From Minutocellus sp. GHC0000111 (taxonomy: Eukaryota), in the NCBI GenBank assembly GCA_977018835.1, contig OZ361261.1:1674001-1738000 (forward strand): a DNA stretch of 64,000 nt. Direction: 5' to 3'. The notes beneath the pieces were generated by a model, which was not told the origin of the DNA, ran no database searches, and saw only the letters and a program-made list of their open reading frames with translations. The first letter of the stretch is position 1. Every line of letters begins with the position of its first letter. This document shows, piece by piece, positions 3,033 through 50,742 of the stretch. The translations under genes and the position numbers were made by a program.

Positions 3033-3513
3033 TTACATGTAGAATGATTACGCTGGAATCCTCTGGAAGACGCATTCCGTGTGGTAATATAGCTAGAGAT
3101 TCCCATGTCAGATTTTTGATTCATGAATTTGATACGAAAATATAGTCATGCGCCGGCGCAACGCCGACGGACCACCATGGTGTTGGACGGTCAAAGAATG
3201 GGTGACGAACGAGATTGGGTTTTGGTGGGTTTCTTCGTGACGTGTTCGTCTTTTGCCGAAAAACGCTTCATCCGACCGGAGATGGGGCTGTGGCCAACAT
3301 GCTGCCGCTCATTTTTACTTGCCGAAGAGCGGTACCTAGGTACACAACATGCATGACAGCACGAGCGTCGGTTGTTGAAGCAAATCTCCCAATTACACAT
3401 CGAAACACTTCAAATATCGTAGGAAGAACATCGTGGTATCTGAGAACTGACCTGGAGGCTGAAGAGAATCGCCGCACCAAAGAACAATAAAGCGCGTCGA
3501 ACAGTGTCGCACG

Positions 3514-13612: not shown

Positions 13613-14305
13613 TTTGCTTGCTCGCCTGGTGAAGTTAAGTTTCAGGCTTGTGCTTGTGCTTTGCGATGATGATAAAATGATAAATGCCTACCGCATCAAG
13701 CGGAAGCAATCGGTGAGGGTGCATCGCCAACTTGTCGAGAAAGCACTTCTCGCGGCGGACTTGCCTCCGCCTCTTGCCAGTATGGCCGAAGGAGATCGTC
13801 AAGTTTTTCCCATACTGCAAGCACGAGGGCTTTTTGTTCCTGCAAAAAGTGGGGAATATCAGAAATGGGTAAACCCCCATAAATGAAACCAGCACATCTC
13901 GCGTGTGCACATCTCGCGTGTGTGCTCAAAACTCATCTGCTCTCGTCCGGCCGTATCTTGACTGGCGGAGACTTACCTTTCGAGTTCAGAGGATTTGAAA
14001 GTGACGTGATGATGACGTATTAGAAACACGACCACACCAGACCAAAAATCCAAGCTCACTATTTCTAACTCCGAGGAATAAATGACGGCCAAGATGGAAG
14101 TCGGGGCAAGAACCAAGTTATGGTCACCAACTTCTAGGCCTACATATAGTCGAGAGATATTGTGCACCAGAACCAATAAATGTACATTATGTGATGATTT
14201 TTTTCGACATTTGCATTCCTCACCCCGGGAAAAAATACATTTTTGGAAGCACCAAATCAAAATGTAATGAATAGAAATGGACATGCTATGATAAGTTATA
14301 GCAAA

Positions 14306-16800
14306 TCAATGACTCCATCCATCGTCTTCTTCATCATTTTCATCTATGTCGTCCTCAATGTCATCATCTTCGCCGGGAGCATCAATTGGCCAGAGTGGTT
14401 CACCATCCTCTTCAGCTTCTTCCTCGGCAATTTTTGCGAGACCAGCCTTTCCCCGTCTGGTCTCCACAAGATTGTTGCCGCCACGACTTCTCTTGATGTT
14501 GTTATGTGTCACTGGAAGTTTTCCAAATACATTGAGAAAGGCCTCTTTTGATGCGACATTGGCCCATACTTTCATCACAGTCTTGTCAAGAGCATTCGCA
14601 TCATTCTTCTGACTGCGATGCTCCTTTTCGACGGCCGACTGCAAAGACATCCAGATGCCGAGATCAAGAACATTTGTCTCGGGCGACCGAGGAACCTGCT
14701 GGATTATCTCAATCTTATATTTGTTTTTGAGGTCCTCGGTGTACTTCTCAACTGCTTCATTGGACCCATGACCGCCGGCATTGTCCATCATAAGATGTGT
14801 AACATCAGACTCCTGAATATTTTGTGGATCCCACTTCACCCAATGATGTGCGTCTCGAATCGCCTTCCCGACCTCATTCACAGTCTCCAACATCCATTTG
14901 GAGTCGCAGCTACAGTCCTTGGTAACCTTATCGCCCCGTTGATACCGCACCCCGAGCTCAAGGTCGTCGATCTCAACCTTCACCTTCTCTCCATTGCTGT
15001 CAGGAGTGCGTCGCTTGAGACTCGAGATCTTTTGATTGTAGCCAACAGCGGCATGCTTGCGATGGCCGGCGGTCATGTCAGCATTCTCGTCGTAAATGTC
15101 GCGCCAATCTTTGTCATTTTTAGCGCATCGTTGACCTTAGCATCTGGAGAGAAATTCTGATTACGCGTAAGCTTTTCCACCTTCTGCTCCCTGGCGACTC
15201 TCTTGATCATGATGCGCCCATTGAAATCAACGTCTTTGGTTTCATCCTTCATTGGTCGGCCAACAACTCCAAGACACATAACTTTGACAGGGGGTCTTCT
15301 GGATCGAATTTTCGGGCGCTTGCCTCAGAAGCATGGACAGACGCGAGGTTCGGACTGCTTAGTTCTTCGTCAGAAAGTGGCAGGCAACATCTTGATCTTT
15401 CGTCGCCGAGTAGCAGTGTAAAACCACTTTTCATCAAGATGCGCTACAGGAATGTTGGGATCGGTCGCAATGTCCTCCCACTTTTCGATCCAATCAAGTC
15501 GCTTCCTACAACATTCCGGGGGTGAGCCTCGGCTTCTCGATCGACGACTTCTCCTTACCGCCTTGCTTTTTCCACCAGCGAAAAAGCTGAAGACGATGGA
15601 GACTAATTGTCAGCCTGTCTTCATCTGGAGTAGCTGATTTTGCGCTCATGCAGTCAGCTAGCTCCTTAAAGGTTGCCATCGCACCCTTCATCCGAGTGGC
15701 ATGCCGATGCAGCTCGCGGAGACATCCTGGCTCCTTCTCCTCGATCATGTCCGTGCATGCCTTCCTTCCACGAACCTCCTTTCTGCAGATGGGATTGCTG
15801 ATGCCATCAGCAAGGCTTTTGTAGAGCTGGTCTCTCCACTTGTAAAGCTGAGAACCACCGGTTGACTTGGCACAACCGTGATCGTGCGCAACTTGCCAAC
15901 ACGCGGCAGTTGCAACTTGTTGCCGGTCTTCATGCGTGCGAGTTGGGTCGCCGCATCCCCACCAATCCGCGAGAGCCACGGCGCTGAACCGCATTCTTTC
16001 ATTCGCCTGCTTTTCTTTTCTGATTGGTGTTGGTTCGGTGACGGTTGCATTGGGACGAGGAGGACGGAGCATGTCATCGTTGGCCATCCGAACAACAAAA
16101 GTCGAGGCCGAGAGCGACCTTTACCTGTTCATCAATGTCACTGGAGGTGGCACAGACAACGGAAGTGTCGGCTCCTCCTAAACCTTCATCATTGGGGGAG
16201 GCTGCAGCTAGCTGCTTCAGTGGCGGAAGCATCACCAGTTCCCTTCAGCATGCTGAGGAGACTTGCTGGCATCCAACCCAGTTTCTTGGCCTCGTCGACT
16301 AGTGATTTTACTCTTGCTTCGCAATGCGCTGACTGCACCTCCTTTCTGTGAGCTGACAACCTCTCACCTAGCTTAGTAGCTAAGACAGTCGAGCGCCCAG
16401 AGAACAGAACTTCATCGGCATTTCTTTTCTCGTGCACCTTCTGTCCCTCCGGTCCAGAGAATTTCGGGTGGTTGTCCTCCTTTTTTTTACGCAACCTGTG
16501 AGCACAAACATAAAGCGCCCTGCGTCTTGTCTTCCCTCTCTCGGCCGACACGTCGACAAGTGCAACTTCAAACTACAATGCTCCTTGAGATGTTGCTGCA
16601 TGTCCTTCCATTTTTCCTCGTTGTACTGTAGCTCATACTTTCCTCCACCGACGGACTTGGAACGCAACAAGTCGGCCTCGATGAAAAGCAGGGAGGGGAC
16701 GTCTTCCCATTTCTGCCGAGAACCACCACAAATGTCATCTTTGCCGCGCAGGAATCGGGGGTTACTCTCCACCACAGATCCTTACCAGCCCTTCGAATGA
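14306..16800 (-). pseudogene. Disrupted DD39D mariner-like transposase
   Basis: HLDEKWF (near 15420-15442), MDNAGGH and QVPRSPETNVLDLG with 39 residues between the 2nd and 3rd Asp; split over several frames. Confidence 0.9.
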
Positions 16801-17135
16801 CATCTGCTGCAAGGAGAAAGGCCATGGGGATAGGAGGAGGGGCCGTCCTCTTCTTCGCCGACGACGGTGACGGTTTGGCGCGGGGGGGCGAATTTGACCG
16901 TGGCCGCTTCTTCGACGTGTTTGCGCTCGGCGATGGTGTTTTCGGCTCAGCTGCCGCCTTTGCCGCCTTCCTGGATGCCTTGGTGTTGCCTCACTTGCTC
17001 CCTGAGAACGAAGTTCTGCTGCGTTTGTATTTTTTGGGCGTGGTCTGGTTTTGGTCGTCGTCATCGTCGTCACAAAATTTGCGGGTTGCGGTGAGGGTGT
17101 GCGGGGGACCAAAAAATATATGTGTTCCTGCCAGA

Positions 17136-17208
17136 ATCTACTGGACCTGCGAATTCAGTGGATACTACTGGTCGGTGGCAACCTACTGAATGAGCAGGTC
17201 CAGTAGAT
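17136..17208. repeat. Subterminal inverted repeat (26-bp arms) inside the mariner element
   Basis: atctactggacctgcgaattcagtgg (17136-17161) pairs with ctactgaatgagcaggtccagtagat (17183-17208), 3 mismatches. Confidence 0.85.
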
Positions 17209-17498
17209 ATCCACGAGTTGAGGAGTATTTGTGTTCCTCCCGAAGAGAACATCGACTAACAAAACACGTGGTGGGAAATGAGAAATGGGTGCAAGAATGA
17301 CCTTTTTTAGGGGTTATTGGTATACCCTCTACAAATCCTCTGAAACCGAAAGGTAGCTCTGTTCAGGCAGCAGGCGCTTCTTCATTACTTCCCTTCAAGC
17401 AATTTTCGCTTTTGGCTTTATTCCCCCCGGCTTTTTGCAGTATATTGCATTTTTATTTTGATCGGGACGAGAACACATTCCAGCACAAAACAGGGAAC

Positions 17499-19411
17499 AT
17501 GGCGCCACCTGCTGTGACCGACCCCACCACCGCCGCAGCTGCCGCATTCGGTGGTGCCGCCTCCTCGGCAACCCCTCCCCCACCTCGTCCGGTGCGGCCA
17601 TCAAGCAGCAGTTCGTCGACCTGCGCACTGCGGCCATCGCCCATCCGCACCAGCTCCTCACCCTGACGTGCTACGTCCCTCCCACCAAAATCGGTTCTGT
17701 CATCGGCCGCCGAGGCTAGTCGGTCCTGACGCTGCAGCGAGAGGCGACCCATCGGAGCGGCGGGGCCAACGGCAGCGTCCGGGTGAGCATCGTCGGGAGT
17801 GGCATGAACGCCGGTGGTGGTGGAGGCGGACCGCCCATTTCCATCCCGCACCACGCCCAGCTGGCGCATTCCGACCCCCGCTCGTCATGGGCTCCGGTGG
17901 TCATCCGCGCCGATCCCGTCGGGGCCTTCGCCGCGGCGCGGCTGCTGACCAGGGACATTGGCGGTCTAGATTGCATGGACGACGTGGTGGTCGACGTGCC
18001 CATCCACCGGAGCCGGCACGCCAGCATCATCGGGAGGAAGGGCCTGACCATTGCCAGCCTCAGTGCCGAGTACGACGTAAGGATTATGGTCCCCCAGAAG
18101 CGGGGCGGGGTGAACCACCACCAGCAGCAGCAACAGCAGGTGCTGGGTGCCAAGCAGGGCGGGGGTGGAGGCGGCGGCGACGAAATGCTGTTTCCTGGGA
18201 CGGAGGAATCCGACAACCAAAAGGGTGGCGGCGGTGGTGGAAAGGGCGCCAAGAAGAACAAGGGCGGCAATCAGCAGGCAGCGGGAGCGGCGAAGAACGA
18301 GGACGAAAATGGGGATCATCATGACGGCGACGAGAACCACCATCGGGAGGCATCGGACGCAGCACCAGGTGGTGGTGCCTCCTACCAGAGCCACCGCCCG
18401 ACCAACGTCAACGTCGTTCAGCTCGAGGGGCAGCTGGACGACGTCGAGCGGTGCCTGGCCAAGGTGATGGCCATTGCGGCCGGGACCAGTACCGGCGGGG
18501 GTGGCGGCGGCGGTTCAGTTGGGGGTGTTGGTGGTGTCAGTAGTGCCGGTGGCAAGATCAAGAGCGCCGACGGAAAGGCGGCCGAAGGCAAGGATGCGGA
18601 CATTCATACCGGAGCCGAGACCAACAAGAAGATGACCAGGGCGGAAAAGCTCAAGGAAAAGAAGAGGGAGAAGAAGGCCAACGCCAAGGCAGAGAAAGAG
18701 GCGGCTGCTGCTGCGGCAGCGGTGACCAAGGCCAAGTCGGGTGACAATGGTGCCATTGATGTCGGCGAGGCTGCGCCAGAAGTTGATGATCAAACCGGAG
18801 ATATTCCCATGGACATTGAAATCAAGCCCAAGGGCGACGGAGAAGCTCCTGTCGATGATGCCACGGCCGCAGCTTCCAAGGAACCCAAATATTCCTTCGC
18901 CGTTGTCAATGCAACGGACGAGACTGCCCACCTCATGCCGAGCCTGCGGAAACTCCAGGCTCTGGCCAAGAGTACCGGGGCCAAGATCCGACGGAGGAAG
19001 GTCGACGAATCGCCGGGCGGCAGCGGTGGTGGTGGCAAGAAGGGAGGAGACGGGAATGCCCCAACGGATGATGACGATGGTGACATGGCAGAGAATGATG
19101 AGGAAGAGACCAACGACAATGGTGGCGGCGACGACGAGGACGAAAATGAAGGCGATGAGGATGAGGAGGACGGTGGAGAAGATGCCCAAGCAAACGATGA
19201 TGGTGCGCCCGGAAAACAAGAAATCACCATCACCGGCAAGACCGAGACCGTCAAGGCGGCCATCTCTGCTCTTGAGAACATCTTCGGAGAGGGCGGATGT
19301 ACCTACACACTGGATGCGCTCAAAACTCGGAAGAAGAAGAATGGAAAGAGAGGCGGCCATCAGTTCCGAGGTAAAAAGAAGAGAAAGGGAGGACCAGGAA
19401 CGAAAGATTAG
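17499..19411 (+). CDS. KH-domain RNA-binding protein (frameshift near 17580-17595, in-frame TAG near 17717)
   Basis: YVPPTKIGSVIGRRG*SVLTLQ and VPIHRSRHASIIGRKGLTI are GxxG KH motifs; third degenerate KH (ITITG..V.AA..AL); Lys-rich NLS-like tail. Confidence 0.8.
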
Positions 19412-19518
19412 CAGCGGCCATAGCTACGTAGCCTTCGCAATTGTACGAGTCTTTGACTCAATATAAGTAATGTAGGCTACATATTTACTACGTGCTAGCT
19501 GAATATTCACTGCATGAT

Positions 19519-21708
19519 CTACAGCGATTCCTCCTCCATTCTTCGTTTGCTGTGTTGTATCTCACGCATTTGCAGTATCTTTCGCAACGAGAAGAACCAA
19601 ACGAGAGGTACCGACATAAGTCCGACAAGACCAGCCGACGCAGCATCGAGGCCGGCCAGCTTCCACTTGGTCATGAGCGGGATAAGGTATTTGCACATCA
19701 CAAAGCTGTACGGTGCCGCAAAGATGTAGCTGTCTACCCGATCCATGACACCTCCGTGCTCGGGGATAAGGTCGCCGAAGTCCTTGATGTCGGCATCGCG
19801 TTTGATCATTGAAGCAGTCAGATCACCAAGAAGACCGAGAGCGCCCAAGTATATGCCATGTATCGGACCAGTGATGTACCAGTATGGCCATCTCTGCACC
19901 CAAGCGCCGAGGGTTGATAAGACGGCGCTGATTGCACAGCCGCCCATGACTCCCTCCACGGTCTTGTTGGGGCTGGCAGCTCCAGCGGCCGGTGCAACAT
20001 CACCAAGCTTGGTCTTACCATATGATCGTCCAACGAAGTAGGCTCCAACATCGCTGAAGGCCAGAGACAGCCATGTCCAAAAGATGAAGACGGCGCCCGT
20101 TGTGATGGGAAGGTGAACAAATTTGGGCAGGAACGACGGCAACGCATCGGCCTTTTGACCAAGGAAGGCAAGGACGGGTTCAGCAAGCTTGGCCAAGCGG
20201 GTAGGAGGCACGTCACTGCCGATGCTTCGAATGCGGACCCAAAACGATGGAATATAACCCAATAAGAACATGCCGGTGAAGGTTGTGCTGATCTCGGGGA
20301 TACTGGTTGTTTGTTTTCGCATGGTCAAAAACCAACCCATCGAGACCAAGGCAAAGAAAGGAAGGCATAGCTGATGCAAGTCGGGAGCAAAGAGTGCCGT
20401 GACGAACATGCTGCATGCTCCCACGACGGATATGCGCCGGGCGGGATAAACACCAGTGTTCATAACCATTCGATAGTACTCCAGCTGACCCAGGATCGTC
20501 ATGAGGGTAAACAGCCCGGTGAACACGTAGTTGCCAGAGAAGACCCAGCAAGCCACGAGCGCACCCATGGCGGCACCGAACAGGATGGACCGACGGGGTT
20601 TGCCTCCATCGGCCTTCTTTTTGAGAGCAGCCTTGGAGGTATCGACCTTGGCTACCTGCTTACTCGCGTCGTCGATGTCGGAGGGCGTGGCGATATCAAC
20701 GGGAAACTCCACCGTAAATGTTTTGGATCCGGGACTCGTCAGCGGCGGGATAGTTTCCACTCCCACCTGCACCAGTGCATCGTCATCTTTCTGAGATGCC
20801 TTGGCCTCCTCGTCCAATTTACGCAAATATTCCGATTCACCGGGATCGACCTTGTTGGCCAACTCTTCACCTACAATCTCGGGGTGCGCAGCACCATCCT
20901 CCTCCTCCAGCATGTGCAAATATTGCGATTCTCCCGGATCAATCTTTTCATCAGATGATTTAGAAGGACTCGCAGCTGCAGGATCACTGCCTCCATTGCC
21001 CATGGCATCCAGCACATCATCGCAAGCATCCAACATTCTACTACGGGCTCGTTCCATCTTGTAAGCGTGCACAGGATCTTCCTTGCCATCGATTCCACCC
21101 TTGTTTGCCTCACTGCTTAGATCGGGCCCATACTCCTCTCCTCGCATCAGATGCTGGACCCGTCGCACGGCCCGGGTGGCTCTGTCGCGAGCAATCCGCT
21201 GCCGCTGGGTGGTGGACGTCTCCTTCCACAGCCGCTGCAGGTACGTGGTATAGATGCCGTAGGCCTTGCCCAGCGGTGTGTGATGCCCCTCGGCCCCGGT
21301 GGCTGTGGTGGATTCCTCCTCATCTTTGGCCTTGGTTGCGGAAGTCGTTGAGCTATCACTCTTAACGTCATCATCTTCGCTTCCATCCGTCTCGGCATTG
21401 TCATCGGAGCTCGCCCAAGATATTACCAGCCGACTTCCGCTGCTGACGTACGACGTTCGGAATCGAGTGGAGAACGACGATGCTGGGAATTTCTTTGCAC
21501 CAATGTGCTGCCTGTTGCGATCATTTGCACAAAGCTGATTCAATGGGCTACGCAACTGCTGACTTTGCGCATATCCTCCAGTTGATGATTGCTGCGGATG
21601 GAACGCTGACGCATGTCGAACGGAAGAATCCAGGATACCGAGGACGAATAGCAGTGCACCGCTGAAAAGCAGGGACTTTGATCCGCTCTGATTTCTGGTC
21701 TGAGCCAT
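19519..21708 (-). CDS. cdsA: Phosphatidate cytidylyltransferase (CDP-diacylglycerol synthase), plastid-targeted
   Basis: SDVGAYFVG, SPNKTVEG and KR..IKDFGDLIPEHGGVMDRVDS signature; signal peptide followed by ASAF. Confidence 0.95.
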   Translation of the reverse strand: MAQTRNQSGSKSLLFSGALLFVLGILDSSVRHASAFHPQQSSTGGYAQSQQLRSPLNQLCANDRNRQHIGAKKFPASSFSTRFRTSYVSSGSRLVISWASSDDNAETDGSEDDDVKSDSSTTSATKAKDEEESTTATGAEGHHTPLGKAYGIYTTYLQRLWKETSTTQRQRIARDRATRAVRRVQHLMRGEEYGPDLSSEANKGGIDGKEDPVHAYKMERARSRMLDACDDVLDAMGNGGSDPAAASPSKSSDEKIDPGESQYLHMLEEEDGAAHPEIVGEELANKVDPGESEYLRKLDEEAKASQKDDDALVQVGVETIPPLTSPGSKTFTVEFPVDIATPSDIDDASKQVAKVDTSKAALKKKADGGKPRRSILFGAAMGALVACWVFSGNYVFTGLFTLMTILGQLEYYRMVMNTGVYPARRISVVGACSMFVTALFAPDLHQLCLPFFALVSMGWFLTMRKQTTSIPEISTTFTGMFLLGYIPSFWVRIRSIGSDVPPTRLAKLAEPVLAFLGQKADALPSFLPKFVHLPITTGAVFIFWTWLSLAFSDVGAYFVGRSYGKTKLGDVAPAAGAASPNKTVEGVMGGCAISAVLSTLGAWVQRWPYWYITGPIHGIYLGALGLLGDLTASMIKRDADIKDFGDLIPEHGGVMDRVDSYIFAAPYSFVMCKYLIPLMTKWKLAGLDAASAGLVGLMSVPLVWFFSLRKILQMREIQHSKRRMEEESL

Positions 21709-36803: not shown

Positions 36804-37050
36804 CTAGCCAGAGAGATCGACATATTTTTTTCTTTTGCCTGCATTCTCTGCCGGGAGCGAAGATGAAGCCAACTAACTGCTGTTGTTTCATTATTGTACA
36901 TAAAAGTTACCGGTGAGGAGGATGGCCGATGAAAGACCTTTTTACATGTAATAGATCTAGATCTAGCTCGAGTAGATCTTTACATGTACATTTGGTGGTG
37001 TTCGTCCCGCTAAATATAGCTTAAATCTATCTATCGTAGTGAAAAGTTAG

Positions 37051-37988
37051 AGAGCGTTTCCACGAGAGAGCCGACACCCCCTCCTCGATGTTTCGTAAAT
37101 ATTGTAACAACTCGATTTTTTTACACCATATGTCTTAAAAGGGTGTTGTAGAGCATAATCAACAATAAAATCGAGGTGTTACAATGATCTTGGGGTACTT
37201 TACTAACAAGTCGCTGGGTTTGGGTCCGAGATTTTGAGCTCGATCTAGTGGCTTCATTTTTATTGACGTGAAAATTTTCGCACAAAAATATTTTCTAGTG
37301 GCTTCAATTGAATAGGTAGCCTCATTTGCATCAGTAAGAACGAATGTCAATAACATAAATCATGGTTACGAACATTGTAGGATAAGATTGAGGGGTAAGG
37401 GGTAAGGGTCAGCACTTGTAGCTCTATTCGAGGTCTCGGTCTCTCCAAGCATTAGGATTGGGATTGTTGGCCGGCACAAAGCCTTCGAAAGTAGCTGCCA
37501 GATTAAGTCTGGCTGATTGGCTCCTGGTAGTTCTTCTCGGCACGGCCACTTCTGTGTCTTCCTCGACCGTTGCTATTACAGATGCTGCTGTAGCATTGGT
37601 AAGAGCATTAATCATAGGGGACATGGCAGCGTGCTCGATGCTCTGACTGATGTTCGAACGGGGAGATAGTGCATGCCGGCATGTAGATCTATAGAGCGTT
37701 TCCACGAGAGAGCCGACACCCCCTCCGCGATGTTTCGTAAACATTGTACCAAAGTAATTTTATTGCTGATTACTGCTTAGAAGGATGTTGTAGAGCATAA
37801 TCAACAATAAAATTACTTTGGTGCAATGTTCTCGGGGTGCTTTGCTAACAAGTCGCTGGGTTTGGGTCCGAGATTTTGAGCTCGATCTAGTGGCTTCATT
37901 TTTATTGACGTGAAAATTTTCGCACAAAAATATTTTCTAGTGGCTACTATTTACAGTGATTTTGTCGGCGGTCTCGTGGAAACTCTCT
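37051..37988. mobile_element. Non-autonomous TIR element (MITE) region: partial copy 37051-37303 and complete copy 37693-37988
   Basis: About 250-bp direct repeat; 26-bp TIR agagcgtttccacgagagagccgaca versus tgtcggcggtctcgtggaaactctct (37963-37988), 3 mismatches; no transposase; TSD ambiguous. Confidence 0.85.
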
Positions 37989-38340
37989 GTACGTACCTAG
38001 GTACACATGTGTGTACATGTTAGACTCTAGATGACTGCTCTCTACCAGTATCGGCACACACACGACGAAGATGCCAGGACAATTCAAAGGCAGATATAGA
38101 TCTAGGTGACTTTGTAGGGGCTGAGTGTCGGTGATGTACTGGAGTAGCATTAATTTCAACATCGATCAATACAGCTGTAGATCTAGTGATGACGTTTTGG
38201 TTGGGAGCTTCAACCCAAAGAAGCAAGATGTGTGAATCACATAACGACAATACCGATGTCCTTATTCATAAGCGGGAATGATTGCGCTGAGTCCTGCAGT
38301 CCCGCCAGTCCCAAACCGTTCGTTTTCACTTCGCTCCACG

Positions 38341-50624: not shown

Positions 50625-50742
<118 letters not shown>

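Follow-up and report, generated by a model that had tools for sequence, protein, structure and literature searches.

Can the DNA of a mobile element be rewritten in one direction, from TpA to TpG or CpA, until its tyrosine codons read cysteine and histidine, and if so, by what? The question is raised by a transposase pseudogene in a diatom, Minutocellus sp. GHC0000111. An initial annotation, made from the letters of a 64,000-nucleotide stretch of contig OZ361261.1 (hereafter the window, with positions counted from its first letter), answered it with a repeat-targeted A-to-G mutator that acts on both strands, prefers TAY and serves as genome defence. From the element, its sister copies and its alleles in public contigs, we conclude with high confidence that the process is real and directed to TpA.

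The sequence in question belongs to a defective DD39D Tc1/mariner transposon lodged in diatom DNA. The annotation had placed the signature at 14306..16500, which misses the ends of the element; the whole transposon, a multicopy element on the reverse strand, measures 3378 bp and extends from 13976 to 17353. A left terminal inverted repeat that starts CCTTTCG (13976..13997, forward strand) is matched by a right one (17332..17353, reverse strand), both lying within a pair of 29 nt found by inverted-repeat search (13969-13997 and 17332-17360, 86% complementary) that also takes in the target-site duplications and flank letters. The TA duplications, left (13974..13975) and right (17354..17355), are intact in the sequence and are corroborated by the empty allele, in which contigs of runs X15, X17 and X18 join 13967 to 17354 and keep one TA only. 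Since filled and empty junctions are both present in the contigs of these three runs, the TA duplication is demonstrated and the insertion, heterozygous by these junctions, is segregating. A further inverted repeat lies inside the element, upstream of the transposase (17136-17208; 24 nt, 92% complementary, with a 25-nt spacer).

The transposase pseudogene (14306..17000, reverse strand), traced by six-frame translation and by tblastn to P0035 of a sister subfamily, is disrupted by several frameshifts and short duplications and lacks about 38 codons at 15061, where indels and loose contig ends are also found; its start is not fixed more closely than near 17000-17100. The catalytic residues, placed by P0035 columns 444, 693 and 733, are the Asp of LDEKWF (15433..15435), that of MDNAGGHG (14783..14785) and that of SPETNVLD (14663..14665), all on the reverse strand and the third 39 residues past the second. 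This DDD triad with its 39-residue spacing, the TA duplication, the short terminal inverted repeats and the length of 3378 bp identify a DD39D element of the Tc1/mariner group. The DD39D or PlantMar elements share short terminal repeats, sizes of 2-6 kb and the DD39D triad with the element described here, whereas the hosts on record for them are flowering plants together with a few oomycetes (PMC7325037); our element is likened to them by its spacing. Pfam returned no transposase domain above cut-off, DDE_3 appearing below it (E 0.04-0.07) in three of eight relatives, and a PDB sequence search gave one chance match. The named homologues of a neighbouring host gene are from diatoms, and each of 19 long window ORFs put through a scan is either an ordinary host gene or without a match. 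A related intact element, with its Tyr intact and the terminal 22 nt in common at 95%, lies on a JGI metagenome contig (L001:2952-5965). Elsewhere in the window, a long (TGCT)n microsatellite (50627-50730) lies just past a patatin/NTE-like gene.

Summed contig depth is 10^4-10^5 inside the element and about 10^2 in the flanks, and depth per majority contig is about 18,000-20,000 inside (X17, X18), compared with 73-103 for each haplotype where the junction is crossed. This depth, which is not a copy count, is a rough sign of about 100-200 copies; the protein cluster closest to the transposase has 275 members. Compared with the run majority, the window copy carries many insertions of 1-6 nt, several of them short tandem duplications, and there are sisters with doubled residues. 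In 130 bp of flank, 21 letters and 20 gaps separate the empty-site haplotype from that of the window. These insertions and the divergent flank may reflect a high rate of small indels or diverged haplotypes; three of the short duplications, examined by eye, showed no link to TA sites.

The annotation had started from a scarcity of TA, and its count of two in 15670-16120 is correct, where 21 are expected from base composition. As a discriminator, the raw count was rejected: a count of 3 already marks the 1st percentile of 451-bp windows, and TA is just as scarce in low-complexity exons of the host (near 900-1100, 6800, 17500 and 18700). TA is in fact low throughout the window (observed/expected 0.60), as it might be under GC-biased conversion, ordinary TA avoidance or selection with no targeted process at all. 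The specific deficit is one of RTAY, which occurs eight times in 14306-17000 (observed/expected 0.22 versus 0.85 in the rest of the window), less often than in any of the 553 windows of the same size outside (minimum 18, median 31). Within the window, the proposed concentration in the repeat is borne out. Host genes use Tyr normally, as had been noted, at 210 of 7450 residues over 14 host ORFs and 1.6-6.5% in each.

The residues singled out in the annotation do carry the Cys and His codons quoted, and ten of the 12 guessed to be ancestral Tyr or Ile have one of these in P0035 or in P0008 (KA-C, PG-C, L-H, R-H, WWG-C, VA-H, G-C, DA-H, T and H); the guess failed for the Cys of AD-C-M and the His of D-H-G, which are conserved in homologues. 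Over 771 aligned columns, the Y/C/H counts are 11/19/21 in the window versus 27/11/16 in P0035. The direction of change is fixed by 141 further homologues and by the L001 DNA, and it is the one proposed, from TA to TG/CA. At the hot columns an aromatic residue, Tyr or another, stands in distant homologues (<70% identity), with Y in 42 of 48 at column 294 and Y35/F18/W6 of 59 at column 353; with L001 as DNA outgroup, 42 of 99 TA sites of L001 correspond to CA/TG in the window, as against 12 of 52 in the reverse comparison. Five columns (61, 113, 603, 618 and 672) are His in every sister copy and Tyr in P0035 or P0008, His being found also in P0008 at column 603 and in P0035 at column 61, which suggests that the founder of the sister copies already carried some hits.

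The substitution spectrum was tabulated from 31 sister protein records, whose contigs range in length from 21 kb to 5.3 Mb and which are assumed to come from the assembly or species of the window. The set drew on 15 listed members of the 275 in the cluster and excluded two records of 60 residues and two on 5-kb contigs; the data being proteins, silent sites are unseen. At 29 Tyr columns the sisters hold 211 Tyr, 126 His, 114 Cys, one Q and one R, and no F, N, D or S, so that 240 of 242 changes are the two transitions, to His or Cys. Other changes where the DNA predicts TA are Ile to Thr or Met, Val to Ala, Thr to Ala, Met to Val and Lys to Glu. Rates per strand were obtained from 72 of 82 candidate TA sites, ten being dropped as fixed or doubtful. 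A>G occurs in 304 of 1091 TAY (0.279, a rate raised by the fact that polymorphism itself was how some TA sites were recognised, a bias from which the Tyr tally with its outgroup support is free) and in 17 of 409 TAR (0.042), confirming the TAY preference. Both strands are hit, as had been claimed, with 184 of 896 on the coding and 137 of 604 on the template strand. The A>G background is 13 of 3149 after A (0.004) and 5 of 6319 after C or G (0.0008), AA being hit 5-fold above CA/GA (p=0.0008). In four-base contexts the counts per strand are 236/697 for RTAY, 68/394 for YTAY, 17/262 for RTAR and 0/147 for YTAR, and GTAC sites, which have no AT within, are also hit (28 of 47 cells). The excess of TA to TG/CA that the annotation had looked to the substitution spectrum to reveal is present in the sister copies. 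Conversion, TA avoidance or selection would have to account for a rate of 0.0008 after C or G against 0.279 in TAY, and for changes that strike conserved aromatic residues in dead copies; that no targeted process exists is highly improbable, being refuted by this ratio between contexts provided that the sister records represent independent copies.

Repeat-induced point mutation (RIP) of ascomycete fungi consists of repeat-directed C>T transitions (CpA to TpA) and makes DNA AT-rich. It resembles the present pattern as a repeat-directed, dinucleotide-specific series of transitions on both strands that wrecks transposons, but it gains TpA through C>T, whereas here TpA is lost through A>G. In the sister copies C>T stands at a background of 0-0.45%, with 0 of 2264 before A and 10 of 2242 at CpG, bearing out the annotation in its dismissal of fungal RIP.

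The rewriting is heaviest in 15270..15960 (reverse strand), where comparison of sister copies shows RTAY Tyr codons changed in 62-100% of sisters and TTAC/CTAC Tyr codons in 0-10%. Near the 3' end (14500-14750), RTAY Tyr codons are changed in 23-27% of copies versus the 62-100% in the centre, which may be an edge effect or one of wider sequence context.

How the hits are distributed among copies bears on what made them. The five-site patterns are distinct in 15 of 15 copies, all four Cys/His combinations occur in 31 of 44 site pairs, and the association of Cys/His between sites is weak (p=0.049), which allows some shared ancestry among copies. Hits are mostly independent per copy and site, as expected after insertion. 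The load, counted over variable Tyr sites, varies between copies from 4 of 22 up to 11 of 11, a spread reached in 0 of 3000 shuffles. Each site has changed once, except for one sister cell with Arg from a second step. Neighbouring hits fall on the same strand in 78 of 160 cases (null 75.8 +/- 5.7), and the imbalance of Cys and His per copy is 33.6 (null 27.6 +/- 6.3; one-stranded expectation 240). This lack of strand coordination argues both against a strand artefact of long reads and against processive editing. Editing of retroelement intermediates by ADAR- or APOBEC-type enzymes leaves strand-coordinated clusters on RNA or a single-stranded intermediate; it was rejected here, same-strand neighbours being at the null and the element being a cut-and-paste transposon.

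The changes might also be an artefact of base calling or polishing at modified bases in a long-read assembly. In nanopore reads, A>G errors become more frequent around methylated motifs and may exceed 50% (bioRxiv 10.64898/2026.01.14.699587), the records with heavy loss of Tyr are mostly those from long contigs, TA is the reading of majority contigs of public runs at seven listed sites, and small insertions occur in many copies. Such errors are, however, strand-biased (bioRxiv 10.64898/2026.01.14.699587) and predict copies that are all Cys or all His, whereas 24 of 26 copies with three or more hits have both. The flanks and the junction are identical to run contigs letter by letter (records of 139-152 nt), relatives on short contigs also show Y>H/C differences, and at column 618 (row 15009), where P0035 and P0008 have Tyr, even the majority contigs read His. 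Eight of the 12 rows listed inside the element, in contigs of two studies, set TA against TG/CA. The allele of the window holds 47-49% of the summed depth at 15617 (X15, X1) and 23-35% at 16167 (X15, X18, X1), shares that are taken from the summed depth of contigs, which drop rare variants. At the listed sites the contigs of X17 show none of the TG/CA alleles of the window and those of X18 show two of seven; a CpG change private to the window (14614) is absent from the run contigs. On these grounds an artefact is very unlikely. Two further observations, a dip in X18 depth at 15655-15791 and a low number of G>A/C>T places per run in the element (16-17 versus about 30 expected if TA stood everywhere in the runs), fit real polymorphism but depend on missing rows and were given no weight.

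Related elements and other repeats were also inspected. Near-identical relatives on short contigs (P0006, P0035, P0039 and P0056; P0045, P0046, P0052 and P0054) differ by Y>H or Y>C, which make up three of five distinct differences in the P0035 group; these related elements may have undergone light action of the process. The related transposase P0012 retains Tyr, so not every element has been hit, and in the JGI loci L001-L024 Tyr is mostly kept with no clear signature. Two transposases of 37-41% identity, P0339 and P0341, have more Cys/His than Tyr at Tyr columns (two of 132 besides a family member), and the process may accordingly touch other families or hosts. Within the window, a duplicate of 60 bp (851-910 and 1767-1826) has three of its four differences as TA versus TG/CA, all in RTAY, and sits inside a 26-nt inverted pair (697-722 and 3320-3345), possibly the bounds of another element. 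In a MITE-like repeat with 29-nt inverted ends (37048-37309 and 37690-37991), five of 14 isolated differences are of this kind.

What, then, changes the A of TpA? Pure transitions, a strict TpA context and hits on both strands fit deamination of adenine to hypoxanthine. A host deaminase of the TadA/ADAT type is the cause we favour, as somewhat probable. Such an enzyme would act in the chromosome on silenced repeat DNA, to which repeat chromatin or homology might guide it; the A of TpA would become hypoxanthine and be copied as G, and because a hit destroys the TA, each site would change once, to TG or CA. Over many generations following insertion hits would accumulate, conserved Tyr and Ile would be lost and the transposase disabled. 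A TadA-derived editor, ABE8e, shows comparable chemistry on genomic DNA, with 94% of off-targets A>G/T>C and a preference for TA, though it is an engineered enzyme and the one suggested here would be natural (PMC13225742). The 27 window ORFs that were scanned gave no match to a deaminase family.

A real TpA mutator might instead arise from error-prone synthesis during repeated repair of repeat DNA, a polymerase like eta placing G opposite T. POLH errs readily where the template reads TW and produces hotspots at WA (PMC6423074), and the excess of AA>AG over CA/GA leans a little to this WA rule. TAY is nevertheless hit about 70-fold more than AA (0.279 versus 0.004), the Tyr changes are the two transitions in 240 of 242 cases, and patch synthesis should leave same-strand runs, none of which is seen in the sister copies. 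One fourth of the in vitro errors of POLH are at C/G (PMC6423074), as against the 0-0.45% of C>T here; this route is unlikely.

A base modified at TAY in repeats, for example a methylated adenine that deaminates or mispairs with no dedicated mutator, is equally doubtful as the source. The target is symmetric and palindromic (RTAY 236/697 per strand, YTAR 0/147), and one-step decay with independence of sites fits a mark that then decays, the adenine analogue of 5-methylcytosine decay. Against this, the CpG sites of these copies decay 60 times more slowly. Eukaryotic N6-methyladenine is located at ApT, unlike the GTAC sites, which are hit without one.

The annotation knew of no characterised pathway with this signature, and here it needs correction: hypermutation of TpA to TpG/CpA has been described by Mettrop et al. 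in integrated NCLDV and virophage DNA of Bigelowiella natans, with Illumina and Sanger support, new mutations still arising at about 1000 times the background rate and DDE endonuclease domains enriched among TpA-poor genes, and an ADAT2-like enzyme was proposed there, untested (bioRxiv 10.64898/2026.01.13.699255). TpA hypermutation is therefore not categorically new, with one precedent found in one unrelated alga. The sister copies share its defining features, almost only A>G and T>C, at TpA and on both strands, but the B. natans host is a rhizarian, not a diatom, its changes are confined to foreign DNA where ours are an RTAY deficit in a repeat, by comparison within the window, and it concerns new mutations in single-copy viral inserts where we see standing copies of a DNA transposon present 100 or more times (bioRxiv 10.64898/2026.01.13.699255). 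The main text of that preprint makes no mention of diatom, stramenopile or trinucleotide, so that the rule of TAY over TAR and strand independence are not stated there, and a literature search with most subscription journals outside its coverage found no diatom host, multicopy DNA transposon target or TAY rule. This locus contributes a multicopy DNA transposon that is only partly rewritten, and from which come the TAY rule, the independence of the two strands and an allele that segregates.

Programmed mutation of repeat DNA has been known as C>T chemistry, and its A>G version from one preprint on one alga, as far as we found; the transposon family described here extends that version to diatoms and to cut-and-paste transposons. 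Partial saturation of the family makes the TAY over TAR rule, strand behaviour and load from copy to copy directly readable, and a segregating insertion with its empty allele in the sampled organism makes a simple amplicon test possible. The pattern would fit a role of the process in defence against mobile DNA. Tentatively, and at somewhat less than even confidence, we entertain a larger idea: that diatoms possess an adenine editor for DNA of their own, a deaminase guided by chromatin or by homology that recognises TAY in the double-stranded DNA of chromosomal repeats. It would work as a RIP in reverse, either held in common with Bigelowiella or evolved convergently, and A-to-G defence would then span both Stramenopiles and Rhizaria. 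Should a natural deaminase of DNA adenine be behind the process, it would count as a new enzyme of defence and be of use to those who develop base editing; the ages assigned to transposons, and gene models poor in Tyr, would also be biased in assemblies of diatoms.
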